Positions 6,138-21,934 of a stretch of 24,000 nt of DNA are shown here, in pieces; the stretch's first letter is position 1, and each line of letters begins with the position of its first letter. The DNA comes from Methanomassiliicoccales archaeon (GTDB lineage Archaea > Thermoplasmatota > Thermoplasmata > SG8-5): the NCBI GenBank assembly GCA_030636255.1, contig DAOVXH010000004.1, positions 1-24,000 on the forward strand, read 5' to 3'. A model generated the notes under the pieces. The model was given only the letters and a program-made list of their open reading frames with translations, was not told where the DNA came from and made no database searches. Made by a program: the position numbers and the translations under genes.

Positions 6138-7712
6138 ATGCACTGGGTTGACGTTTACGCAGAAAAGCTCTTAGAGCAAGGTAAGTCACATATTATTGAG
6201 AGTGGAACCTCTATTTCCGGACAGCCGCATCTTGGCAGCGCCGAGGACATAATAATCTGTGATGGAATTCTGAAGGCCATAATCGAGAAGGGCGGCCAGG
6301 CAAAAGCAATCTGGGCCATGGATGACATGGACGGCCTTAGAAAAATACCAGCTCAACTTCCAAAGGAATTTGACAAATATCTTGGACAGCCAGCTTATGT
6401 TTTACCATGTCCGGACGGATGCTGCGGTTCTTTCAGAGAGCATTTTACAAGACCATTCCTTGAAAGCCTGGAAAGAATAGATGTCAAGCCAGAGCCAATA
6501 TCTGTGGCGCAGATGTACCAGGACGGAAAGTATGATGAAGTTGTCACAATCGCACTGACCAGGGCCCAGGAAATTAAAGACATCATGAAAGAGGTTTCAG
6601 GTAGCGAACGAGATGATGACTGGCTGCCGTTCTTTCCCATATGTGAGAACTGCGGAAAAATACTCAGTACAAAGGCCTATGAGTTTGACGGCAAGATGAT
6701 AAAATACACTTGCAAGGGCGGCATTGCCGGTAAAAATTTGATTCCTGGCTGCGGTCATGAGGGAGAGGCAGGCATTCGACAGGGCAAGCTTCCATGGCGT
6801 GTGGAATGGGCAGCAAGATGGAGTCATTTGGGGGTAACCTGCGAGCCAATGGGCAAAGATTTAATGGCTGCCGGAGGGACCTATGAAACAGGAAAGGCCA
6901 TTTGTGAGAAGATATTTGACAGTCCAGCGCCGATGCCAGTACCCTATGAGTGGATAGTCATAGGCGGCGGAAAAAGACTTGGAAAATCTGCTGGCACAAT
7001 TCTAACAATTGGCGAGATGATTGACATTATCACTCCAGAAATCGCCAGATACTTCTTTTTCAGAACCAACCCTGCCAGCCACAAGGAGATTGACTTCGAG
7101 CTGGCAATTCCCAAGCTTGCCGAAGAGTATGAGATTGCCGAGAAAATTTACTTTGATATTGATACTGGATTACCGGAAAAAGAGCTTGACGAAATGAAAA
7201 GAAAATACGAAGTAGCTCAGTTCCAAGGAATACCTGAAAACTTCAGCCAGGTATCTTACTCGCATTTAATTTCAACAGTTCAGACAGCCCAGGATTGGGA
7301 CCATATCTTGAAGAAACTGGCCAGAACTGATGATTTAAGCCAGATGACACCGGAGCATGAGCGTCGCCTGAAAGAAAAAGTTCAGGCTGTAAGAACCTGG
7401 CTTGACACCCACGCACCAGAAAACATGATTTTCCAGCTCCAGATGGAGCACCCGAATGTGGAAATTACCCCGGAGCAAAAAGAAGTACTGGCCACACTTT
7501 TATCCAAGATGGGAAGCATAGAGTGGACTGCGGAAAATGTCCACAGCAGCATTTATGATACTTCCGTGGAATCAGAAATAAAGGCTGGCCAGATGTTCAA
7601 ATTAATTTACCAAATATTCCTGGCCCGAAGCAAGGGCCCCAGACTGGGACATTTACTGGCATCGTTGGAAAAGGATTTTGTGCTTGAAAGAATAAAGTAT
7701 TTTTCGGCTTAG
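6138..7712 (+). CDS. lysK: Lysyl-tRNA synthetase, class I (archaeal type)
   Basis: MHWVDVYAEKL...SGTSISGQPHLGSAED carries the HIGH-like element. Also present: GKLPWRVEWAARW, EPMGKDL and a KMSKS-like GKRLGKSAG. It is collinear with the methanogen LysK sequence as I recall it. The start is 9 nt after the gfcR stop, preceded by GAGGAAA. Confidence 0.9.
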   Translation: MHWVDVYAEKLLEQGKSHIIESGTSISGQPHLGSAEDIIICDGILKAIIEKGGQAKAIWAMDDMDGLRKIPAQLPKEFDKYLGQPAYVLPCPDGCCGSFREHFTRPFLESLERIDVKPEPISVAQMYQDGKYDEVVTIALTRAQEIKDIMKEVSGSERDDDWLPFFPICENCGKILSTKAYEFDGKMIKYTCKGGIAGKNLIPGCGHEGEAGIRQGKLPWRVEWAARWSHLGVTCEPMGKDLMAAGGTYETGKAICEKIFDSPAPMPVPYEWIVIGGGKRLGKSAGTILTIGEMIDIITPEIARYFFFRTNPASHKEIDFELAIPKLAEEYEIAEKIYFDIDTGLPEKELDEMKRKYEVAQFQGIPENFSQVSYSHLISTVQTAQDWDHILKKLARTDDLSQMTPEHERRLKEKVQAVRTWLDTHAPENMIFQLQMEHPNVEITPEQKEVLATLLSKMGSIEWTAENVHSSIYDTSVESEIKAGQMFKLIYQIFLARSKGPRLGHLLASLEKDFVLERIKYFSA

Positions 7713-7767
7713 CTGGTTCAAAAAGTTTAATATGAACCTATCAATACCCGCAAAATGCGTAACGGCT

Positions 7768-7813
7768 CTCGACAAAATATTGTCGAGGCTGCGTGGAATG
7801 CAAAGCATTCCAC
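7768..7813 (+). other. Two adjacent perfect stem-loops between lysK and tRNA-Gln
   Basis: CTCGACAA-aata-TTGTCGAG (7768..7787) and GTGGAATGC-aaa-GCATTCCAC (7793..7813). Neither is followed by a T-run. Function unknown. Confidence 0.5.
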
Positions 7814-7856
7814 TGGCCCCAAGTCTATTCGGCCATTCGTGAACTCATAACCTCAT

Positions 7857-7928
7857 AGCCTTGTGGTGTAGCGGCTATCATGGGAGACTCTGGATCTCTC
7901 GACTCCAGTTCAAATCTGGGCAAGGCTA
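7857..7928 (+). tRNA. tRNA-Gln (anticodon CUG)
   Basis: Manual cloverleaf. Acceptor AGCCUUG pairs perfectly with CAAGGCU. Anticodon stem is GGAGA/UCUCU and the loop is CU-CUG-GA. The variable region is 4 nt. T-stem is UCCAG/CUGGG with loop UUCAAAU. Discriminator is A and no CCA is encoded. A1:U72 plus A73 is the archaeal tRNA-Gln pattern. Confidence 0.9.
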
Positions 7929-7948
7929 TTTAATTATTTTATTATCTG

Positions 7949-7976
7949 AGCCTTGCCCAGATTTAAGAGGAATCGC
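7949..7976 (-). repeat. Inverted partial copy of the tRNA-Gln 3' end (T-arm 3' half plus acceptor strand)
   Basis: 7949..7964 (AGCCTTGCCCAGATTT) is the exact reverse complement of tRNA positions 7912..7927 (AAATCTGGGCAAGGCT). Weaker similarity continues for about 11 nt: cgaTTCCtcTT versus cgaCTCCagTTc. The two arms are separated by a 21-nt AT-rich spacer. Confidence 0.8.
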
Positions 7977-8038
7977 TTGCGAGACGAATAATCAAGAGAA
8001 ATCCTTATAACATAATCCCCTATGCCAGAACTGATAAC

Positions 8039-9703
8039 ATGGAGCAGCCAAAAGACTTCATCAGGGACATTGTGGCCGAAGACAATAAAACCGGCAAGTT
8101 CAAAGGTAGAGTGCATACCAGATTTCCTCCAGAGCCTAATGGATATCTCCATATTGGGCATGCCAAGGCTTTCATGCTGAGCTATGGTGTTGCCAAAGAG
8201 AATAACGGAAAATTCAATCTTAGATTCGACGATACCAATCCAGTCAAGGAAGAAACCGAATACGTGGACGGAATAATCGCCGATGTCAAGTGGATGGGAG
8301 CGGACTTTGAGGACCGTTTGCTGTTTGCTTCTGACTATTTTGGACAGTTATATGATTATGCCGAGGATTTGATAAAAAAAGGCAGGGCATATATTGATGA
8401 CCAGACACCCGAGGAAATGAAATTAAATCGGGGCGACTTCGAGAAGCCAGGCAAAGATAGTTCATTTCGAAACAGGTCAGTTGAGCAAAACCTTGGTTTA
8501 TTCCGACGCATGAAGGCCGGAGAATTCGCAGACGGTGTAAGGGTGCTTCGAGCCAAGATTGACATGACACATCCCAATATGAACATGCGTGACCCTGTAA
8601 TATACAGAATTCTCCATGCCAGTCATCACAATACCGGGGATGAATGGTGCATTTATCCAATGTATGATTGGGCACATGGGCTTGAGGATTCAATTGAGGG
8701 CATAACCCACTCACTTTGCGATGTTTCATTTGAGAATCATCGACCGCTTTATGACTGGTTTCTGGATCAGCTGGGGGTCTATCATCCGCAGCAGATTGAG
8801 TTCGCCAGACTCAATATGACCTACACTATCATGAGCAAGCGCAAGCTGCTGGTTCTGGTGGAAAATGGTCATGTAAAGGGCTGGGACGACCCCAGGCTGC
8901 CAACACTTCTGGGACTGCGAAGGCGCGGTTATACTCCACATTCAATTCAGGACTTCCTGAACAGGGTAGGCGTGGCCAAGAAGGAAAATTGGATAGCCAT
9001 CGAGCTTTTAGAGCACTGCATCAGGGAGCATCTGAACAAGATTGCTCCGAGATATATGGGTGTTCTTGACCCTCTGAAGATTGTAATTACCAATTTGCCA
9101 GATGGCCATGAGGAGTTCATGGAGGCCATTAACAATCCAGAGGATGAGAGTGCCGGCACCAGGCAGATTCCTTTCTCCAAGGAGATTTACATTGAAAGAG
9201 CAGATTTCATGGAAGAGCCAGTGAAGAAATTTTTCAGGCTTGCTCCAGGCAGGGAAGTACGGCTTCGATATGCCTATTTCATGACATGCAATGATATTGT
9301 GAAAGATGACGCTGGCAATATTATCGAGCTGCATTGCACAGTGGACCCGGAGACAAAGGGCGGCAATGCCCCTGACGGCCGAAGGGTAAAGGCCACAATG
9401 CACTGGGTCAGCGCAAAACATGCCATTGATGCCGAAGTTCGATTATACGATAAATTATTCACTGTGGAAAACCCACTGGCAGAAGATGGGGTCTTTGAGA
9501 GCTATGTTAACAAGGACTCACTGGAAATCCGGACGAACTGCAAGATTGAACCGGCTGTGAAAGAACTTGGTATTGAAGATAAAATTCAGTTTGAGAGGAC
9601 TGGATATTTCTGTGTTGACAAGGACACTACGCCTGAGAAGATGGTTTTTAATCGGACTACTGGGTTGAGGGATACCTGGGCAAAAGTGAAAAACCAAAAT
9701 TGA
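8039..9703 (+). CDS. glnS: Glutaminyl-tRNA synthetase (bacterial-type GlnRS)
   Basis: [20 protein letters not shown] holds the HIGH motif. Also present: [45 protein letters not shown] (KMSKS), [20 protein letters not shown] and the C-terminal [14 protein letters not shown]. It is collinear with E. coli GlnRS as I recall it over the whole length, including the GlnRS-specific C-terminal anticodon-binding domain. Confidence 0.92.
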
Positions 9704-9951
9704 TTTTCAGTCCAACATAATATTTCTCAAAAAATCTAGCTAGTGTATTGATAATGATTGTTGAACGCAAAGCGTTCGACCACGACATGGCATCAAATAT
9801 ATACAAAATTTAATGTCGTACTGCTCACAATAATCTACTGGCAATGGTTGGATGCGAGGACAAAATATAAACAGATAGAGTATCCGACATGATTGAGCAA
9901 TTTCTCAACAATCGCAATCAAAAATTCCGCAATCGCATGGCATTTAGCAGC

Positions 9952-9999
9952 GGATTGCGGAGAGATACCTGGGCGAAGGTTCAGAAACAGCAAAAGTAA
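9952..9999 (+). pseudogene. Relic of a second glnS 3' end (last ~15 codons plus stop)
   Basis: gga ttg cgg aga gat acc tgg gcg aag gtt cag aaa cag caa aag taa encodes GLRRDTWAKVQKQQK*. The intact gene ends [13 protein letters not shown] (9661..9703). Differences in the conserved block are mostly synonymous third positions. Weaker similarity (F.NR) lies just upstream, inside a 36-codon ORF at 9889..9999. Confidence 0.55.
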
Positions 10000-10032
10000 T
10001 ATATCATTATCTTCATGTAATCAATTGTGTGG

Positions 10033-13000
10033 ATGAAGAGAAATTATGTAGCCTGGATATGTGCGTTTTTGATGCTCAGCAGCGTGTTTGTTGGATTGCA
10101 AGTAAATGAAAATGCTGAAGCCAGGATAGCTGAGGGAGATGGAGTATTGTATACACCTCATGCGCCAATTAGAATAGATTCGGATGCGGATTTTCCTGGG
10201 ATTGCGTCTGGAGGTGACGGAAGTGCTGGTTCTCCCTGGATAATAGAAAATCATGAGATAAATGGCACGGGTCATGGATATTGCATTTACATTGGGAATA
10301 CTACTGAGCATTTCATTGTGAGAAATAGTTTTGTACACAATGCAGATGGATTACTAAGTTGGCCGTATTATACAGATTCAGGATTGACATTATATAATGT
10401 TCAAAATGGAGTAGTCTCAAACAACACCGCAGCTTCAAACCTTCGTCAAGGATTTTTGCTCCACACCTCCTCCAATAACACTATTGTTGACAACAATGTA
10501 TCTTCATTAAATTTGGATGGTATTTTACTCTACTCCTCCTCAAAAAACACCATTAGAAATAATACTGCAACTTTTAACAATGACTTTGGAATTTGCCTTA
10601 GCCTCTCCAACAATAATACAATATCAAGCAATAATGTGTCATTCAACAATAACAATGGCATGTACATAGTCTCTTCCACAAACAACACATTTTCAGGTAA
10701 TTATGTTGCATCGAACAATGACAATGGTATGCACCTAATTTCTTCGAGTAATAATTCTCTTGCTAATAATTCTATTATGAACAATGATGATTATGGAATC
10801 TTAATTGAGACCTCAATCAATAACACTCTAACTCATAATACCATGTACATGAATCTTTTGAGGTGCTTAACCCTCCGGTTTTCAAATAGCAACTATATAA
10901 CGAATAATAATTTATTTTCAAACAACGGTTGTTCTATTATGCTTGATTCGTCTTATAATAATTCAATTTATCATAATAACATAATCAATAGTGCTTTCGC
11001 CTTTGATAACACAGGATTTAACTCCTGGGACAATGGCTATCCGGACGGCGGCAATTACTGGAGTACATTCAACACCAGCCTTTATGTTGGAAACGAGAGC
11101 TTCTTCGCCTCTGGCGGCGAGGAGGGTTTCTATCTGGATCAAAACGAGAACACACCAGGATTCCAGGGTATCCAGACATTACATGAGATCAGATATGTTT
11201 GGGACAATGACTGGTCCTTTGTCTATGTATTGGTCGAGGGTGTAGATTTTGATATAAATATTACCACTGGCTGGGTTCAGGTTTACTGGGGAGGATTTGT
11301 TCTAGGCGATCAGCTCTATAGTGAATACACTTGTCTTGTAAACCCACCAGACCTATTCTGGGGACCAAATCAAGATATTCCTGACTCTGACTTTATTTAT
11401 GATATGCCATACCCAATTTTGGGAGGAACCAATGAGGATTCATATCCACTTGCTTACCCAATCATCAACGGAAGGTTCCAGCGTGGCCCAATAAGGATAG
11501 ATTCCAATGCTGATTTTGACCAAGCTCACGGTGTAATCAATTGGGATTCTGGAGATGGAAGTATTGACAATCCCTGGATAATCGAGAAATGGGATATTAA
11601 TGGAACTGGCCATGAATTTTGTATTTATGTTGGGAATACTACGGACTATTTTGAGGTGAGGGGCAATAGTTTTCACAATGCAAGTGGATTCGGGGTCATA
11701 ATACGCAATTGCTATTATGGAATAATTCTTGACAATGAAATAATTTACAATAATAACAATGGAATTTACTTACCGCTTTCATTTTATATCACAATTCAAA
11801 ATTGTAAGATATTATACAATAGCAATTCAGGCATTTATTTGAATGAGGCTTCTCGTCTAATCACAATTGAAAATAACACTATAAGTTACAATGCTGGCAA
11901 TGGTATTGAAACTTTTTATTCCTGGGGCAATAAAATATATAACAATGTGATAAGTAATAATGACGGTTCAGGTATCGGAACTTTTGCAGGTAGTAAAAAT
12001 ATAATAAAACAAAACACTATCTCAAATAATCAATATGCTATCGCACTCTTACTTTTTGATGGCAATGGAAGTATAATCAAACAAAACACTATCTCAAATA
12101 ATCAATATGGAATTTATACGGTCTTTTCTTCAAGTAATATTAGTTATTATCATAATAATTTCATTAACAACACCATCCAAGCATATGACGATGGCACCAA
12201 CAATACCTGGGACAATGGCTACCCAGATGGAGGGAACTATTGGTCTGACTATTCCGGTGTTGATTTGAATAGTACACCCTCCCAGGATATACCACCACCA
12301 GACGGAATCGGAGACACACCATATACAGACATTGACGGAGTGGCTGGAACCATAGACAATTATCCATTGATGGAGCCCTGGATGCCGCCCCCTATACTCA
12401 CCTATGACATAGACCTCACAACAGGCTGGAACCTAATCTCCCTGCCCCTTGCCCAGTCTGATGAAGATATTTATTCTGTATTATCCAGTATTGACGGTGA
12501 CTGGGACAGAATTAAGCTCTATGATTCACAGAGTGTGAATCACTGGTTATCGAGTTCCATATACAGTCCAGACCTGAGTGAAATTGACCAGTTGAACCAC
12601 ACAGTAGGCATCTGGATACACATGGTGAATGCAACAACTCTCACTGTGGAAGGAATAGAACCAGTGTTCACAAATATAACATTATATGCTGGTTGGAATC
12701 TGGTAGGCTATCCATCATTGTTTCCTGAAACTGTGGCAAATGCCCTCTGGGGAACTGGAGCAGACCGGGTGGAGGTATGCGACCTTGAAGAACCAGGCTT
12801 GATAAAAGAGGTGGGGCCAACTTATATCATGCAGCCAGGAGAAGGGTACTGGGTTCATGTTCCGGCTGATACTGTCTGGACAACTGAAAAGACTGTAGGA
12901 AATCCTCAAATTGTTGTACGAGGGGACAACCCTGACACTGGCGGTTATGAATACATTAGATTTAACAACACAGAACCAGTAAATGGTGATACAATTTCAA

Positions 13001-16224: not shown

Positions 16225-16247
16225 ATTAAGATAAAAAGGTGTTAAAA

Positions 16248-17015
16248 ATGATTGATGACGTAGAAGTAACAAGAAAGATTTTCGAACGCTACTCCAGAGA
16301 ATTTCTGGACAATACCCAGGTGGATGTAATTATTGCCGGGGCTGGCCCAGCCGGTCTCACCGCTGCAAGAATACTGGCCAAAGCCGGGAAAAAAATCTTG
16401 ATTGTTGAAAGAAAGCTTGCCCCAGGAGGAGGAATGTGGGGCGGTGGAATGAATTACCCGGTCATTGTCATACAGCCAGAATCAAAACATCTCCTTGATG
16501 GAATCAATATACCAGTTCAGGATGCTGGTGATAATTATTACACTGCAGATTCAGTGGAATGTGTTGCAAAACTTTTGGCCAGCGCAATCGATGCTGGTGC
16601 AAAGGTCTGGAATGCTGTTACAGTCACAGATGTCATGATACGCCAGGAAAAAGTTGCTGGCGTTGTCATAAATTGGACCGGCGTGGACCTCACTGGAATG
16701 CATGTTGACCCATTGACCATCGGTGCAAAATATGTTCTTGATGGTACAGGCCATGATGCCAGCGTCTGCGAGGTTACCCACAGGAAGGCTGGAAAATTGA
16801 ATACACCTAGTGGGGGTGTTGAAGGAGAACGCTCCATGTGGGCCGAAGTGGGTGAGCAGACTGTGGTCGAAAATACCAAGGAAATATACCCTGGCCTCTA
16901 TGTTATTGGCATGGCTGCTAATGCAGTAATGGGAGCCCCAAGAATGGGGCCCATATTCGGCGGCATGCTCCTTTCCGGAGAAAAGGCAGCCAGGGAAATC
17001 CTGGAGAAATTATAG
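16248..17015 (+). CDS. thi4: Thiamine thiazole synthase, Thi4 family (archaeal type)
   Basis: DVIIAGAGPAGLTAARILAKAG is the FAD/NAD fold. Also present: ERKLAPGGGMWGGGM, DGTGHDASV and GMAANAV.GAPRMGPIFGGMLLSG. The start is set at ATG 16248, with GGTG 6 nt upstream; the track start GTG 16239 is possible. The stop overlaps the convergent radical-SAM gene's stop by 6 nt (TTATAG). Confidence 0.85.
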   Translation: MIDDVEVTRKIFERYSREFLDNTQVDVIIAGAGPAGLTAARILAKAGKKILIVERKLAPGGGMWGGGMNYPVIVIQPESKHLLDGINIPVQDAGDNYYTADSVECVAKLLASAIDAGAKVWNAVTVTDVMIRQEKVAGVVINWTGVDLTGMHVDPLTIGAKYVLDGTGHDASVCEVTHRKAGKLNTPSGGVEGERSMWAEVGEQTVVENTKEIYPGLYVIGMAANAVMGAPRMGPIFGGMLLSGEKAAREILEKL

Positions 17016-18071
17016 ACCCAGTTCCTTGGCAACTTCCCTTGCAGTATCTATGAAGCAATAATCACCATTTACACGCTGGAGCCAGCATGCTCCACGGCAC
17101 AGGTCTAAAACGTCACAATCCTTGCAGTCCTGGGGCACATCATCGAAGAGTGTTTCCCTGAATCGGGTGAAGCCCTTCCACCACATGTCTGCTATTGGAA
17201 CTTCCTTGACATTTCCTTCTGAGTATAATTCCGGGAACTCAAGTGCCGGACATCCCATAACCTCTCCGTCTGCCATTATTGTGAATGTGTTCCATCCGCA
17301 ACCGCAGAAGAATGGTGGCCTAATAACGCCATCCAGTGGTCCAAGATAACCGTGACCTTCGCAAACTTCGATATTGTGGCCTTTCTGCTTCATCTCATAG
17401 ACATACTTGAAGACCTTCTTCATTATCACAGGGTCATTCTTCATGCCAACTGCTCGGCCTTCTGGAACTATTGTCTGAATCCTGTGGCGCATACTTCCAT
17501 GTGCTACGCAATCATCGTAAATCAGAGGTATCTCGTCCACATTTTCTTCCATGTAAACTGTTGCTGTTGCAACCACTGGAAGTTCCATCTCTGTGAATAT
17601 ATCCAGGGCTTCCATGGCCTTTGCATAGGCTCCCTTTGTTCCCCTTATCTTGTCGTGATTGTCCCTGTAACCGTCAAGGCTCACCATAACGGAGAATGGC
17701 TCTGCTTCTTCAATCATCTTTCTGTTTTCTTTGATTGCAAATCCATTGGTAACAAAACCAGTCATTATGCCGCGTTCTTTGCATCGCTGCATGACCTCTG
17801 GAAAGTCAGGCCTTAGTATGGCCTCTCCACCGGTCAAGGACAGTACCTTGGTTCCCATCTCTGCCAGTTGGTCAATAACATTCAATATCTGCTCGGTTGT
17901 GAGCTCGTCGGGCTTTGCCTCGTCAGCAGCTGTTCCACAATGCGGGCATTTGAAATTACACTTGTGTGTGGCAATCCACTGGACATAAAATGGTGCCAGT
18001 GTTTTGTTCTCAAACTGCGTTCTGTATTCTTCCTCTGCTCTTATCTGTAAAGGTCTGTCATCATCTTTCAT
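17010..18071 (-). CDS. Radical SAM/SPASM-domain enzyme 2 (no N-terminal peptide-recognition domain); putative peptide maturase
   Basis: The radical SAM motif is C-NFK-C-PH-C, about 38 residues from ATG 18071. The full SPASM pattern is CGWNTFTIMADGEVMGC ... CKDCDVLDLCRGAC ... C. ATG 18071..18069 lies 1 nt after the stop of the upstream radical SAM gene, with GAGAGGGA upstream. The track's longer start at 18146 would overlap that gene by 74 nt. Confidence 0.8.
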   Translation of the reverse strand: MKDDDRPLQIRAEEEYRTQFENKTLAPFYVQWIATHKCNFKCPHCGTAADEAKPDELTTEQILNVIDQLAEMGTKVLSLTGGEAILRPDFPEVMQRCKERGIMTGFVTNGFAIKENRKMIEEAEPFSVMVSLDGYRDNHDKIRGTKGAYAKAMEALDIFTEMELPVVATATVYMEENVDEIPLIYDDCVAHGSMRHRIQTIVPEGRAVGMKNDPVIMKKVFKYVYEMKQKGHNIEVCEGHGYLGPLDGVIRPPFFCGCGWNTFTIMADGEVMGCPALEFPELYSEGNVKEVPIADMWWKGFTRFRETLFDDVPQDCKDCDVLDLCRGACWLQRVNGDYCFIDTAREVAKELGL

Positions 18072-18072
18072 A

Positions 18073-19473
18073 TTAATCCCTCTCTTCAATTTTTTCATTA
18101 GCTTCAAAATCATTGACCATCTTCTGCCAGCGCTGGTCAACGTCATACTTTCTTCCCATCTTTTTCATGGTTGAGGTCCAGATGGATTCTTCAAACAATC
18201 TCTTGTGCATATCACAGAATATATCAGGTGCTCTTATGGTATCATGCTTCGAGTATGCATGCATTCTGCATCCTCCAGCACAATAATAGCGCCACTCACA
18301 GTCAGAACATTCCTCTATGGTCTCCACGCTTGTTTCACGCCATTCATGGAACACCGAAGAATTATCCCAGATGTTTTGAAGGCTATCTTCTCTGATATTG
18401 CCTGCAAGAAACTCTGGAAGCTGTGATGCCTGACATGGATAGATGCTTCCATCGGAGTCCAGGCTGATACTGTTTATTGCAGCACCACAATTATAGCCAT
18501 ATTTAGTAATGACTGGCCCTGCGGCTGACTTCTTATTGTCCAGAGGAACATCTGAGTTTAATTCCCTGCTGGTCTTGTCAATATCCCACCATGCATTCAG
18601 CAGCTCCAATACAGTGGGCTGGCTGCTGTTCTCGCCCTTCCCGATGGCCATCAATGGAGGGCTTTTCACACTGGCAAGGCCGTACTTGTTTGCCACCCTC
18701 ACCAGATGATCCAGTTCATTGCAGTTTTTATTGGTAACCACCGCATTGATATATGGATTGATGCCAGCATTAACAAAGTTCTCTATGGCCTTAATGGCAG
18801 CATCATAGGAACCTTTTCCTCGCATCTCATCGTGTATCTCTCTTGGACCGTCAAGGCTCACCTGTACAGAGCAGAAATTGTTCTTGATTCGCTCTGCCAT
18901 CTCCTCATCTACCAGAATACCATTTGTGGCCATTATTAGTGATATGTCATACTTTTGAGCATGCGCCACAATATCCCAGAAATCCTCCCGCATCAGAGGT
19001 TCACCGCCACTAATGGCGATTGTCTGGTTATCTCCACCCATTTCATGGAACTGATCAATGAAATTGAAAATCTCCTCGGTGGTAAGCTCATTTTCCATTT
19101 CCTGGCCTGCGGTAATGTAGCAGTACTTGCAACGTAAATTACATCTGTGGGTTATATGCATCCAGGCCATCTGAATGGTTATGTCTGGTGGGGTAGCCTC
19201 AAAGGTCACTCCAGAGCCTTCAAGCATTCCCATTCCTTTCAGGGTTTCAATAAGAGCTCCCAGGTCCTTCAATAGTTCCTCTTTTGGCAAATCATACTTC
19301 TGGGCCAAAGAAGAAACAATGTCATCCAGGGAATTCTGGCCGTCCATCATCTCAATGGAAAAAATTGCCTTTTCGAAGGCCACAAACCAATCTGGCTTAT
19401 CCGGGTTCAGGCACAGAAATAAATCCTCGTAATTCTTTATGACTATATCGTCAATAACTTTTGGTCCATTCAA
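18073..19473 (-). CDS. Radical SAM/SPASM-domain enzyme 1 with N-terminal PqqD-like (RRE) extension; putative peptide maturase
   Basis: C111-NLR-C-KY-C is the radical SAM motif. The SPASM pattern is CGAAINSISLDSDGSIYPC ... CSDCEWRYYCAGGC ... C. Residues 1..~95 (..FSIEMMDGQNSLDDIVSSLAQKYDLPKEELLKDLGALIETLKGMGMLEG) resemble PqqD/RiPP-recognition elements. The start is TTG 19473, with GGAGAGGG ending 5 nt upstream. There is no in-frame ATG or GTG after the upstream TAG. Confidence 0.8.
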   Translation of the reverse strand: MNGPKVIDDIVIKNYEDLFLCLNPDKPDWFVAFEKAIFSIEMMDGQNSLDDIVSSLAQKYDLPKEELLKDLGALIETLKGMGMLEGSGVTFEATPPDITIQMAWMHITHRCNLRCKYCYITAGQEMENELTTEEIFNFIDQFHEMGGDNQTIAISGGEPLMREDFWDIVAHAQKYDISLIMATNGILVDEEMAERIKNNFCSVQVSLDGPREIHDEMRGKGSYDAAIKAIENFVNAGINPYINAVVTNKNCNELDHLVRVANKYGLASVKSPPLMAIGKGENSSQPTVLELLNAWWDIDKTSRELNSDVPLDNKKSAAGPVITKYGYNCGAAINSISLDSDGSIYPCQASQLPEFLAGNIREDSLQNIWDNSSVFHEWRETSVETIEECSDCEWRYYCAGGCRMHAYSKHDTIRAPDIFCDMHKRLFEESIWTSTMKKMGRKYDVDQRWQKMVNDFEANEKIEERD

Positions 19474-19503: not shown

Positions 19504-19550
19504 AAAAATAAATATTAAAAGGGGCTTGAGTGTAAAACACCCACCGCCCC
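19504..19550 (-). terminator. Possible attenuator/partial terminator between precursor ORF and maturase genes
   Basis: Minus-strand RNA is GGGGC-GGUGG-GUGU-UUU-ACAC-UCAA-GCCCC, followed by UUUUAAUAUUUAUUUUU. The hairpin is imperfect, but oligo-U runs alone can terminate archaeal transcription. Confidence 0.3.
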
Positions 19551-19579: not shown

Positions 19580-19699
19580 TTATGGCTTGACACCAATGAA
19601 AATTCCGTATTTCATTCCAATGTCTGTGCATGGTGGTTTGCCGCCGTTGCAGCCGTTGTAACCACCGGCATTCTCGCTCTGATTTACTATATCGCTCAC
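19580..19699 (-). CDS. Small Cys/Gly-rich peptide, candidate RiPP precursor (39 aa; not in ORF track)
   Basis: The start is GTG 19699..19697, with GGAGGTG (19711..19705) 5 nt upstream. The stop is TAA at 19582..19580. Translation is MSDIVNQSENAGGYNGCNGGKPPCTDIGMKYGIFIGVKP. It lies directly upstream of, and co-directional with, the RRE-bearing radical SAM gene. An in-frame ATG at 19753 would give 57 aa. Confidence 0.6.
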   Translation of the reverse strand: MSDIVNQSENAGGYNGCNGGKPPCTDIGMKYGIFIGVKP

Positions 19700-19889: not shown

Positions 19890-20783
19890 TCATGCGCCCC
19901 ATTTCGCCAGGTTGCCGTCCCTCTCTGCCTTGTGCATGCCTTTCCTGAACAAGAATATGCCTATTGACAGGAATATAACAGTAAATATCAATAACATGAA
20001 AATATCATTCATTATTATGGGCATGTCCGTGGCCTGATTCATTGCAGGGTTCAGAAGACGCCTGAAGGCATCCAGTGCATATGTATGTGGGAATATTCTG
20101 GACAGGTAGTACATGGGAGGAAATACCTCAAGATATACCTCAGGAGGGAAGAACGAGCCAGAGACAAGGCCAGCAAATGTTGCAAAGAACCAATTAACAG
20201 GTTCAGCGCCACCCTTCACATCCAATAATAGGAAAGTACTGGCTGAGATAAGTCCCAGACCACTTATGGATAAAATTGCAAGTAATAGGACAGTAATCAG
20301 AATAAAAATATTAGATGGCACGGCAATTATGGCACCAAGTAGGGAAACCCCAACAAGAATGTAAAACAGGATATTGAGCGTGGAGGAAATCAGTGCCCTT
20401 ATAAGTACCACAATCAGATAATTGTAGAACTTAACTGGTGATGATAGAATAATCTCCAGCCAGTTATTGAAATATGTCTCGGAAATTACACTACGCACCG
20501 CTATGAGACAAACATTTGCATATGCAAAGAAGGCCACACCAATAAGAACGAATGTAAAGAAATCACCGCCGTACTCTGCAAAATAAGTTGCATCTGGCTG
20601 TATCACATAATTTAGAAAGAAAAATGACAGTATGGCCACAATGGATGAAATAGTTCCAACAATGGCACTTATCTTGAACCTCATCCATAGATAATAATGG
20701 CGGGTGTACATGGCCCTAACAAAGTCTAGCTTACCCCTGAATGACATTGAGGTCTTAACTGGAACAATTGCCTTTTCGCTCAT
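19890..20783 (-). CDS. ABC-2 type transporter permease
   Basis: The 297-aa protein has about six hydrophobic helices and an N-terminal cytoplasmic segment (..FVRAMYTRHYYLWMRFK..) typical of ABC-2 permeases. Its start overlaps the ATPase gene's stop as ATGA. Confidence 0.75.
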   Translation of the reverse strand: MSEKAIVPVKTSMSFRGKLDFVRAMYTRHYYLWMRFKISAIVGTISSIVAILSFFFLNYVIQPDATYFAEYGGDFFTFVLIGVAFFAYANVCLIAVRSVISETYFNNWLEIILSSPVKFYNYLIVVLIRALISSTLNILFYILVGVSLLGAIIAVPSNIFILITVLLLAILSISGLGLISASTFLLLDVKGGAEPVNWFFATFAGLVSGSFFPPEVYLEVFPPMYYLSRIFPHTYALDAFRRLLNPAMNQATDMPIIMNDIFMLLIFTVIFLSIGIFLFRKGMHKAERDGNLAKWGA

Positions 20784-21808
20784 GCCTCACCTCTTTCTTT
20801 CATTACCTGAACAAATATATCATTCAATGTTGGAGTTTGTATATCCACTCTATGAACCTTGCAAAATTCTTTTGAAATGTCAATAATATGTGGAGCTAAG
20901 CGATGCATTTCTTTGCCATAAATCGCAAGTCTGCTGGCCCCAGGAATGATGTCTTCGGGGTCTTTTTGAAACTCAACATGAAGTATCAAATCCAGTCCAA
21001 TTAGCTCTTTGGCCAGGTCTTTGATATTGCCAGATATATCAAGCAATAACAAATCATCTGATAACTGTTTTCTAAGTTCCTCGGCTGTCCCAACCTTCAC
21101 TATCTGGCCCTTGTCTAGAATTACCACTCTATCGCATACCTTCTCTGCTTCCCACAGATTATGTGTTGCCAGGACCACAGTAGTACCTCTCTTGGCCAAA
21201 TTTTCCCTGATAAAATTACGAATAAATTCACTTGAATAGGGGTCAATATTGGTTGTTGGTTCATCAAGCAGATAAATCGGCCTATCAATCATTAAGCATC
21301 TGGCAAGGTTGAGCTTTTGTCTCATTCCTGCACTGAGATTTTCAGTGAACTCTTTCTTTTTGTCACCGAGACCTACCGTGTCCAGTGCCTTGTCGGCTGC
21401 CTTAATTGCCTCATCATGTCTCAGGCCCATGAAAACGCCCCAGAACAGGAGCAGCTTGTCAAGAGGATACTTGTAATCAAAAATGATCCAGCCACCGGCC
21501 CTCAGGAAATTGCAGGAGCAGCGCACTTCATGCCTATCTTCCACAATATCAAGACCATTAACAAGAACTTTACCACTATCTGGGTACAGGAACCCGGCCA
21601 TAACCTTCAACATGGTAGTCTTGCCTGCTCCATTTGGCCCCAAAATACCAATAACCTCGCCTTTTTTCACCTGAAGATTAACACCATCCAGGGCATCAAT
21701 ATATTTTCTCTTGTCCTTGCTCATGCTCTCCTTAAAATTATCCAGCCAGTTATTTTCTGGATCTTTTTTCGGATACCGCTTGTGAAGCCCTCTTATGTCT
21801 ATCATCAT
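20780..21808 (-). CDS. ABC transporter ATP-binding protein
   Basis: Walker A is GPNGAGKTT, the signature is LSAGMRQK, Walker B is IYLLDEPT and the H-loop is ATHNL. The start is set at ATG 21808 (MMIDIRGLHKRY), a typical ABC N-terminus. The track's GTG 21895 start would leave only 39 nt to the divergent gene. The region between Walker A and the signature is divergent; I could not recognise a Q-loop Gln. Confidence 0.8.
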   Translation of the reverse strand: MMIDIRGLHKRYPKKDPENNWLDNFKESMSKDKRKYIDALDGVNLQVKKGEVIGILGPNGAGKTTMLKVMAGFLYPDSGKVLVNGLDIVEDRHEVRCSCNFLRAGGWIIFDYKYPLDKLLLFWGVFMGLRHDEAIKAADKALDTVGLGDKKKEFTENLSAGMRQKLNLARCLMIDRPIYLLDEPTTNIDPYSSEFIRNFIRENLAKRGTTVVLATHNLWEAEKVCDRVVILDKGQIVKVGTAEELRKQLSDDLLLLDISGNIKDLAKELIGLDLILHVEFQKDPEDIIPGASRLAIYGKEMHRLAPHIIDISKEFCKVHRVDIQTPTLNDIFVQVMKERGEA

Positions 21809-21934
21809 TCTTTCGGCCAAATTCCCTTCTCCGTTGAGTGCCGAAATCCGGCCACCTTTAAATTGTTTGTCATTAGTGATAATACTCCACATCACCCCAA
21901 GATTTATAGTGAAGTTGAACTATGGGCTGCCAGC

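Follow-up and report, generated by a model that had tools for sequence, protein, structure and literature searches.

Gene organization of the cluster

The window, i.e. the whole stretch of DNA analyzed here, comprises the first 24,000 nucleotides (nt) of contig DAOVXH010000004.1 from a Methanomassiliicoccales archaeon (assembly GCA_030636255.1). It contains five co-directional genes on the minus strand, encoding an ATP-binding cassette (ABC) ATPase, an ABC-2-type permease, a peptide of 39 amino acids and two radical S-adenosylmethionine (SAM) enzymes with SPASM domains, which we call E1 and E2. The cluster was compared with about 60 related loci (numbered L009, L010 and so on; L012 and L013 are counted as one locus, and L017 is the same as L040). 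The reading that we favor, with a probability of about 0.6, is that it belongs to the type producing peptides that are synthesized ribosomally and modified post-translationally (RiPPs), and that E1 and E2 modify different parts of one peptide, a cysteine pair and a tyrosine motif, respectively.

The precursor peptide gene (19580..19699, minus strand) starts with GTG at position 19699, downstream of the Shine-Dalgarno site GGAGGTGA. Its product consists of a leader ending in ..NQSENAGG, a core with two cysteines spaced as C-x6-C, and the C-terminal part TDIGM-KYGI-FIGVKP. The E1 gene (18073..19473, minus strand; 466 codons) starts with TTG, 5 nt past the site GGAGAGGGA, so that both unusual start codons and the strong ribosome-binding sites assigned to them in an initial annotation of this sequence stand. 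At L126, an ortholog locus with 95% identity, the E1 gene has a TTG start at the matching position, the peptide gene likewise has a GTG start behind a Shine-Dalgarno site, and the peptide retains both cysteines and TDIGMKYGIFIGV; in L010 and L127 E1 starts with ATG at the equivalent position. Between the peptide stop codon and the E1 ribosome-binding site lies a GC-clamped hairpin (GGGGC...GCCCC) followed by a T-run (TTTT; 19517..19550, minus strand), which, as read from the sequence, is a possible partial terminator and could control how abundant peptide transcripts are relative to enzyme transcripts.

The E2 gene (17010..18071, minus strand; 353 codons, ATG start) follows E1 immediately. At the junction (18071..18085, minus strand) the E1 stop codon TAA (18075-18073) is separated by a single base from the E2 ATG at 18071, and GAGAGGGA lies within the last codons of E1, exactly the arrangement from which translational coupling had been proposed; the junction sequence in L126 is identical. 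Across the loci the spacers from E1 to E2 are +1, 0, -23 and -26 nt, and +27 nt in L127, with a Shine-Dalgarno-like site within E1. In L012/L013 the gene order is reversed and the spacer is 18 nt, and in L124 a 0-nt spacer separates E2 from an upstream radical SAM enzyme that carries a RiPP recognition element (RRE) and is not E1.

The first gene of the cluster encodes a DrrA-like ABC transporter ATP-binding protein (20780..21895, minus strand; Pfam ABC_tran, 1.6e-28, and DrrA1-3_C), which scores 215 bits against the NCBIfam drrA subfamily model, below its cutoff, and whose ortholog occupies the equivalent position in L017 and L126. The start of the permease gene (19890..20783, minus strand; 297 codons) overlaps the ATPase stop by 4 nt. 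A Pfam scan of the window permease gave no match; its homologs adjoin E2-family genes in L017, L048 and L125, the L125 copy being annotated as ABC2_membrane. Directly past the E2 stop codon, a consensus scan found a terminator-like hairpin with a T-rich tail (16990..17004, minus strand), which is a pattern match only. A Thi4 thiazole synthase gene (16239-17015, plus strand) is convergent with E2, the 3' ends overlapping by 6 nt (17010-17015), and this convergent arrangement is also present in L126.

E1 is an RRE-bearing enzyme resembling CteB

We assigned enzymes to the radical SAM/SPASM subfamily (PF04055 and PF13186) by the CxxxCxxC motif and a C-terminal seven-cysteine motif, CX9-15GX4C ... 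CX2CX5CX3C ... C, corresponding to two auxiliary [4Fe-4S] clusters. Judged by their sequences, both E1 and E2 belong to it, with seven SPASM cysteines in E1 and eight in E2, which bears out the full cysteine sets noted initially. As an RRE (PF05402) we accepted an N-terminal winged helix-turn-helix domain with three strands and three helices in about 80-90 residues; such a domain is present in E1 only.

The radical SAM cysteines of E1 are C110, C114 and C117, leaving 109 residues ahead of the motif, in agreement with the approximately 110 residues and the RRE annotated before. Pfam matches to PqqD (PF05402, residues 38-83, 30.9 bits against a cutoff of 23.4), Radical_SAM (106-245) and SPASM (329-393) are all above the cutoffs. 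In the AlphaFold2 model (mean predicted local distance difference test score, pLDDT, 88.9) strands at 10-14, 17-22 and 27-32 are followed by helices at 33-41, 48-59 and 63-79, so that residues 10-79 are predicted to have the RRE topology, and the RRE would span residues ~1-85. The SPASM cysteines C328, C346, C388, C391, C397, C401 and C419 are all invariant in 24 relatives.

The top match of E1 in a sequence search of the PDB is CteB (5wgg, 7.1e-32), the thioether maturase of SCIFF/thermocellin (PDB 5WGG/5WHY). CteB is also the top Foldseek match, with 450-462 aligned columns that include the N-terminal domain and template modeling scores of 0.68-0.75. The two enzymes share the order RRE, radical SAM, SPASM and can be aligned over the full length, and the substrate of E1, too, would be a short cysteine-bearing peptide encoded just upstream. 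However, the window peptide, which bears no relation to SCIFF, has two cysteines instead of six, and E1, unlike CteB, is paired with a second SPASM enzyme, in archaea. In CteB one auxiliary cluster has three cysteine ligands, and the substrate cysteine binds there. By analogy, the seven cysteines of E1 suggest that an iron site is left open to the thiolate of a substrate, as opposed to a fully ligated cluster in the eight-cysteine E2.

E1 reached no cutoff among the NCBIfam models; its scores are 192 bits for StsB (NF045574, cutoff 625), 186 for MftC (TIGR03962, cutoff 265) and 129 for SCIFF (TIGR03974, cutoff 425). Membership in the SCIFF family, defined by a score above the TIGR03974 cutoff and an adjacent six-cysteine SCIFF precursor, was rejected on both counts, since the two-cysteine peptide is not SCIFF-like. 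Assignment of E1 or E2 to MftC or StsB was rejected likewise: it takes a score above the cutoff and the matching precursor (StsA, or MftA with a terminal Val-Tyr), while both enzymes score below the cutoffs (136 and 108 bits, respectively, for E2) and the peptide ends in ..FIGVKP.

E2 belongs to a family without RRE

The radical SAM cysteines of E2 are C38, C42 and C45. Only 37 residues precede them, as annotated, and in the structural model (pLDDT 93.8) they contain a lone helix (8-21) before the barrel. The Pfam scan of E2 found Radical_SAM (33-187) and SPASM (256-320) above the cutoffs and no PqqD. In 43 E2-family proteins carrying the CxxxCxxC motif the stretch before it comprises 28-61 residues, barring two longer ones that look like mis-called starts; the count leaves out P0044, an N-terminally truncated fragment without the motif. 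Because these stretches are so short, the sequences rule out an RRE family-wide. The eight SPASM cysteines are C256, C258 (27/31), C274, C316, C319, C325, C329 and C339. Similarly RRE-less among radical SAM/SPASM enzymes is DarE of the darobactin pathway, whose substrate binding works differently (PMC10705402).

The fold of E2 matches SkfB, SuiB, PqqE, CteB and anSME roughly equally, and neither E2 nor the relatives and partners tested reached any NCBIfam cutoff. The best model for E2 is TIGR04133 (162 bits, cutoff 425), named rSAM_w_lipo for a radical SAM/SPASM protein linked to a lipoprotein. This model describes RRE-less proteins of similar length, no curated model scores better than it with E2 or with nine of the ten tested members and partners of the family, and bacterial E2 homologs also adjoin lipoprotein-like proteins. 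Nevertheless, six other family members score 145-209 bits, and with all scores of the E2 family in this range against a cutoff of 425 we rejected its inclusion in TIGR04133. No paper on TIGR04133 was found in the open-access literature. No description of the E2 family or of the tyrosine motif treated below was found either: the family is outside the curated models, and motif strings such as PMYGV and PLYGV gave no relevant match in the same literature.

Distribution of the E2 family and its partners

The E2 family comprises about 45 clusters at identities of at least 38%, after which identity falls to 30%; a profile search of 1.84 billion representatives revealed a continuum of relatives without a sharp family edge. 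The core clade has a support of 100 in the Shimodaira-Hasegawa-like approximate likelihood ratio test (SH-aLRT). We provisionally define the family by membership in this clade, fewer than ~60 residues before CxxxCxxC, and a neighboring open reading frame (ORF) with [PVA]-[MLK]-Y-[GA]-[VIP]; the window E2 lies in the clade, has its 37 N-terminal residues and adjoins a peptide with G-M-K-Y-G-I. More distant E2-like relatives (P0177, P0182, P0173, P0198, P0213) include double radical SAM/SPASM polypeptides and a Band7(SPFH)-E2 fusion, and many are ~700 residues long with a transmembrane segment and a C-terminal domain of no known type; a check of the ~700-residue relatives for the tyrosine motif, as possible enzyme-substrate fusions, found none.

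The family occurs in two of 22 genomes of the host order and in two of 401 genomes sampled from the phylum. This rarity suggests that the peptide-E1-E2 cluster is accessory and mobile. It also bears on the notion that E2 is a cofactor or protein maturase which merely happens to lie downstream of E1 and takes no part in maturation of the peptide. Such a bystander could occur without E1, as relatives of E2 do, and E2 is named by no curated family; but the sporadic distribution is not that of a housekeeping enzyme, coupling of E2 to E1 holds for all ortholog loci, its tree broadly tracks that of E1, and most family members have a motif-bearing neighbor. We therefore consider a bystander role very improbable.

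An E1-type partner is present only in seven distinct loci (the window, L126, L127, L010, L017/L040, L009 and L012/L013), and E1 is missing for the majority of the E2 clade. L009, which is from the same genome as the window (contig C16:12000-25595), carries a second complete peptide-E1-E2 set, with E2 49% and E1 37% identical to those of the window; its features lie at 6570-9261 (minus), 9496-10260 (minus) and 10435-12225 (plus), a third E1 being on the opposite strand.

Elsewhere the partners of E2 vary. In L124 E2 abuts the above-mentioned RRE-bearing enzyme, which forms a long branch with the outgroup and is not an E1 ortholog. In L122 and L123 the genes after E2 encode B12-dependent radical SAM enzymes and PqqD proteins that stand alone. 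Three loci of Omnitrophota type, L025 (8001-11824), L026 (2-3599) and L052 (3800-7740), show a convergent two-enzyme design, the E2 homolog occurring with an ACGX-like radical SAM/SPASM enzyme; besides these two, they encode a secreted protein of small size and a Lys-rich peptide whose end reads ..VYGACS(S)CG.., with an HprK-like protein in L025 and probably in L026. The whole L125 cluster is made up of a Cys-free peptide of 38 amino acids, E2 and an ABC-2 exporter, without any RRE-bearing enzyme.

Finally, the bacterial loci L014 (Elusimicrobiota), L018 and L042-L047 and the loci L019, L021 and L023 of DPANN archaea have a stand-alone E2 next to a non-enzymatic ORF. No RRE-bearing enzyme was found near E2 in L125, L014, L045-L047, L019 and L023. 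Downstream of the stand-alone E2 of L014, a metagenome-assembled Elusimicrobiota genome, a gene at 9156-10109 encodes a 317-residue protein resembling an M50 membrane metalloprotease with HELGH; its N-terminus looks winged-helix/RRE-like, and its Pfam matches are weak. In the metagenome contigs L042-L047 (e.g. L045:4918-5877) a conserved lipoprotein-like family is always encoded directly upstream of E2 and a small secreted tetratricopeptide repeat protein; its members share an N-terminal domain and have a lipobox-like ..FFC(V/I)SP, the repeat P-[LM]-Y-G-V in 3-7 copies and, at the C-terminus, the conserved tail ..EKQ.NDR.EL..KGIK.VP.

The initial annotation had offered two alternatives, that the enzymes install two different modifications on one peptide or that E2 borrows the RRE of E1. 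The latter can be extended to an obligate E1-E2 heteromer, in which E2 holds the leader by means of E1's RRE and each enzyme links one cysteine, by a thioether or another cysteine-based bond. Several observations are in line with such a complex: in most loci with the order E1-E2 the stop and start codons are at most 1 nt apart or overlap, with a Shine-Dalgarno site inside E1; the core has two cysteines for two enzymes; and the RumMC1/RumMC2 sactipeptide cluster is a two-enzyme precedent (PMC8188230). The groupings (window, L126, L010) and (L017, the L009a copy) also recur in the E1 and E2 trees, which are incompletely resolved and only broadly congruent, L127 shifting between them.

On the other hand, members of the same E2 clade adjoin Cys-free substrates with no RRE protein within 7-17 kb of flank, the partners of E2 vary by lineage (B12-dependent radical SAM enzymes with stand-alone PqqD, ACGX-like enzymes, none), and the tight spacing is lost in L012/L013, with their reversed order, and in L127. 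The refuting condition set in the initial annotation, a grouping of E2 with enzymes occurring apart from E1, weakens the borrowing of the RRE: the SH-aLRT-100 clade does hold enzymes without E1 or any RRE enzyme, and their neighbors are repeat lipoproteins or a Cys-free peptide. Since such same-clade enzymes exist, a need of E2 for the RRE of E1 is disfavored, and we judge the obligate heteromer unlikely. A physical E1-E2 complex in the lineage of the window is possible and would be compatible with a division of labor.

Cysteines accompany a second radical SAM enzyme

Peptides of the same design as that of the window are encoded upstream of E1 in L010, L127, L017 and L009, and upstream of the non-E1 RRE-bearing enzyme in L124. 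At least two cysteines are present in all 11 short candidate peptides whose locus has a second radical SAM partner (six with E1-type enzymes, two with the L124 RRE-bearing enzyme and three with ACGX-like enzymes) and in none of the nine without one. As cysteine pairs are found only with a second radical SAM enzyme, two different modifications on one peptide are the better of the two initial alternatives. The third E1 of L009 (10867-12225) provides a natural control within the same genome: it lies beside a truncated E2 lacking the N-terminal radical SAM half, and its candidate upstream peptide has a cysteine pair and no Y-G/A-x motif.

Just ahead of the core, a leader motif N-x-N-S-A-[LI]-[HQG]-G occurs in L010 (3994-4548), L127 (~150-300), L122 (4751-4942), L123 (1581-2201) and L125 (1650-1766), and thus is common to loci with E1, with stand-alone PqqD and without any RRE protein. 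Instead of being a target of the RRE, it may serve as a signal for cleavage or export.

A tyrosine motif in the neighbors of E2

At most E2 loci a neighboring ORF contains the motif P-[MLK]-Y-[GA]-[VIP]. The carriers are unrelated: small peptides in archaea, C-terminal tails of membrane proteins in DPANN archaea, and lipoprotein-like repeat proteins in bacteria. Among the peptides, the window has ..CTDIGM-KYGI-FIGVKP, L010 and L127 have ..CTEVGP-KYGV-F.., L017 and L009 have ..CVEVGS-IYA[VA]-F.., L124 has ..P-LYG[IVF]-P.., L125 has ..IA-LYGV-MV.. and L123 has ..AWY[AS]V... The membrane-protein tails of L023 and L021 end in ..PLYGVYSR and ..AMYGVRMP, respectively, and L019 contains ..RPMYGVEPMYGVPMPAPEYGV... 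The lipoprotein-like or repeat proteins of L042-L047 and L014 have three to nine copies of P-[LM]-Y-G-[VI]-[EQ]-P. In a sister group with L030, L033 and L056 the motif is found in adjacent large proteins.

A blind count in six frames found 40 copies of [LMK]YG[VIP] among the 76,601 residues encoded on the same strand up to 1.5 kb from E2, against 12 among the 451,130 residues from the remaining parts of these loci, an approximately 20-fold enrichment (Fisher p = 1e-23, a value inflated by repeats and related loci, which are not independent). In 56 motif instances Tyr is invariant; position +1 is Gly in 46, Ala in nine and Ser in one, 49 instances have Val, Ile or Pro at position +2, and 36 have Pro at position -2.

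The invariant Tyr, the small +1 residue and the variable +2 residue point to a Tyr-centered change, perhaps a three-residue cyclophane. An intramotif cross-link, e.g. from the Tyr ring to the C-beta of the +2 residue as in triceptide cyclophanes, is our leading guess for the E2 reaction, though a doubtful one. Cyclophane-forming enzymes act on aromatic-X-X motifs, among them Aro-Xaa-Asn (PMC9062424), and Y-[GA]-[VIP] is of this form; the +2 residue near E2 is, however, hydrophobic and not Asn, Lys or Arg. Triceptide systems are defined by an Aro-X-X core cross-linked from ring to C-beta and by an enzyme within the 3-CyFE clade; the triceptide enzyme ChlB (PDB 9GM3) is among the fold matches of E1 and is not among the 50 best of E2.

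Alternatively, E2 could modify the Val or Ile after Tyr-Gly, by epimerization or by formation of cyclopropylglycine, with Tyr-Gly serving only for recognition. Position +2 is Val or Ile in 41 of the 56 instances, TIGR04103 is the second-best NCBIfam match of E2, and the cyclopropyl synthases TvgB and TigE act independently of an RRE on repeated short motifs with Val or Ile (PMC9062424, PMC10878394). In these synthases a GYW motif ahead of SPASM is strictly conserved (PMC10878394), whereas at the comparable position the E2 family has E-G-x-G-[Y22/F5/W2]-L-G, i.e. G-[Y/F/W]-L, with Leu in 29 of 31 proteins where Trp is required. Moreover, in 15 of the 56 instances +2 is Pro, Ala, Phe or Trp, yet Tyr is invariant, and TigE is absent both from the PDB sequence matches of E2 and from its 50 best Foldseek matches. 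Modification of the Val/Ile position thus appears improbable. As E2 lacks the GYW signature and some +2 residues are neither Val nor Ile, it was rejected as a cyclopropyl synthase, and cyclopropylglycine is an unlikely product.

A probable division of labor between E1 and E2

According to the reading that we favor, E1 would dock the leader through its N-terminal RRE and, being CteB-like, act on the two core cysteines, probably forming thioether cross-links. The RRE-less E2 would act on the K-Y-G-I motif nine residues past the second cysteine. It would recognize this short stretch of the core directly, a task that stand-alone relatives must likewise manage when their substrates are repeat proteins or peptides lacking Cys. 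Through the stop/start junction of 1 nt the two enzymes would stay co-produced, and the ABC exporter would then remove the product. Beyond the observed architectures, cysteine sets, coupling, family distribution and motif co-occurrences, we infer which residue each enzyme attacks and which bond is formed.

Several points weigh against this division of labor. The tyrosine motif could be a signal for recognition, cleavage or export instead of a modification site, and no convincing copy was found near E2 in L015/L016/L044, in L020/L022/L028 and in the Desulfobacterota sister clade. Apart from the inflated p-value of the enrichment, the motif helped in picking some substrate ORFs, which leaves the tallies by locus not entirely blind. 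Where a locus with E2 only lies on a short contig, a partner could be hidden past the contig end. The comparison of seven with eight cysteines, in turn, leans on the structures of CteB and anSME.

Clusters with two SPASM maturases and a single precursor had been considered uncommon, which is a fair remark; precedents with two radical SAM maturases are nonetheless known in TigD/TigE and HxsB/HxsC (PMC10878394, PMC9062424), and RumMC1/RumMC2 form a two-enzyme sactipeptide cluster. As in these systems (PMC10878394, PMC9062424, PMC8188230), the window cluster has more than one radical SAM maturase per peptide. Several of these systems target short repeated core motifs; their enzymes and motifs are unrelated to those of the window cluster, which lacks HxS or TIGSVS repeats and GYW. 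It further differs in that its two enzymes pair with two distinct motifs which occur apart in other genomes. Archaeal SPASM thioether enzymes are only now being characterized, CrpC being an example (PMC13692751).

Implications

Overall, E2 represents a small radical SAM/SPASM family outside all curated models, of a known kind and with a fair chance of being a new enzyme-motif module. A bolder proposal, which we put forward tentatively and with the odds somewhat against it, is that E2 founds a class of RRE-independent radical SAM/SPASM enzymes that place a new Tyr-centered modification on P-[MLK]-Y-G-[VI], as a portable module. If so, this motif would be modified in RiPP peptides, repeat lipoproteins and membrane-protein tails, in archaea (Thermoplasmatota-like and DPANN) as well as in bacteria (Elusimicrobiota, Omnitrophota and others), and evolution would have repeatedly joined the E2 module with Cys-modifying enzymes (E1-type, ACGX-like) to yield doubly cross-linked peptides.

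New cross-link chemistry in peptides comes mainly from radical SAM/SPASM enzymes, of which archaeal examples have, to our knowledge, barely been explored. The split seen here is a clean one: the RRE-bearing enzyme matches the cysteines, and the RRE-less enzyme matches a four-residue Tyr motif that is found alone elsewhere. A 38-residue Cys-free peptide with one enzyme, as in L125, would be a minimal system, and the short recognition motif could be transplanted into further peptides. A post-translational modification that has so far been unsought may exist on surface lipoproteins of bacteria and on membrane proteins of DPANN archaea, and multi-enzyme RiPP pathways would be shown to be buildable from separable enzyme-motif modules.

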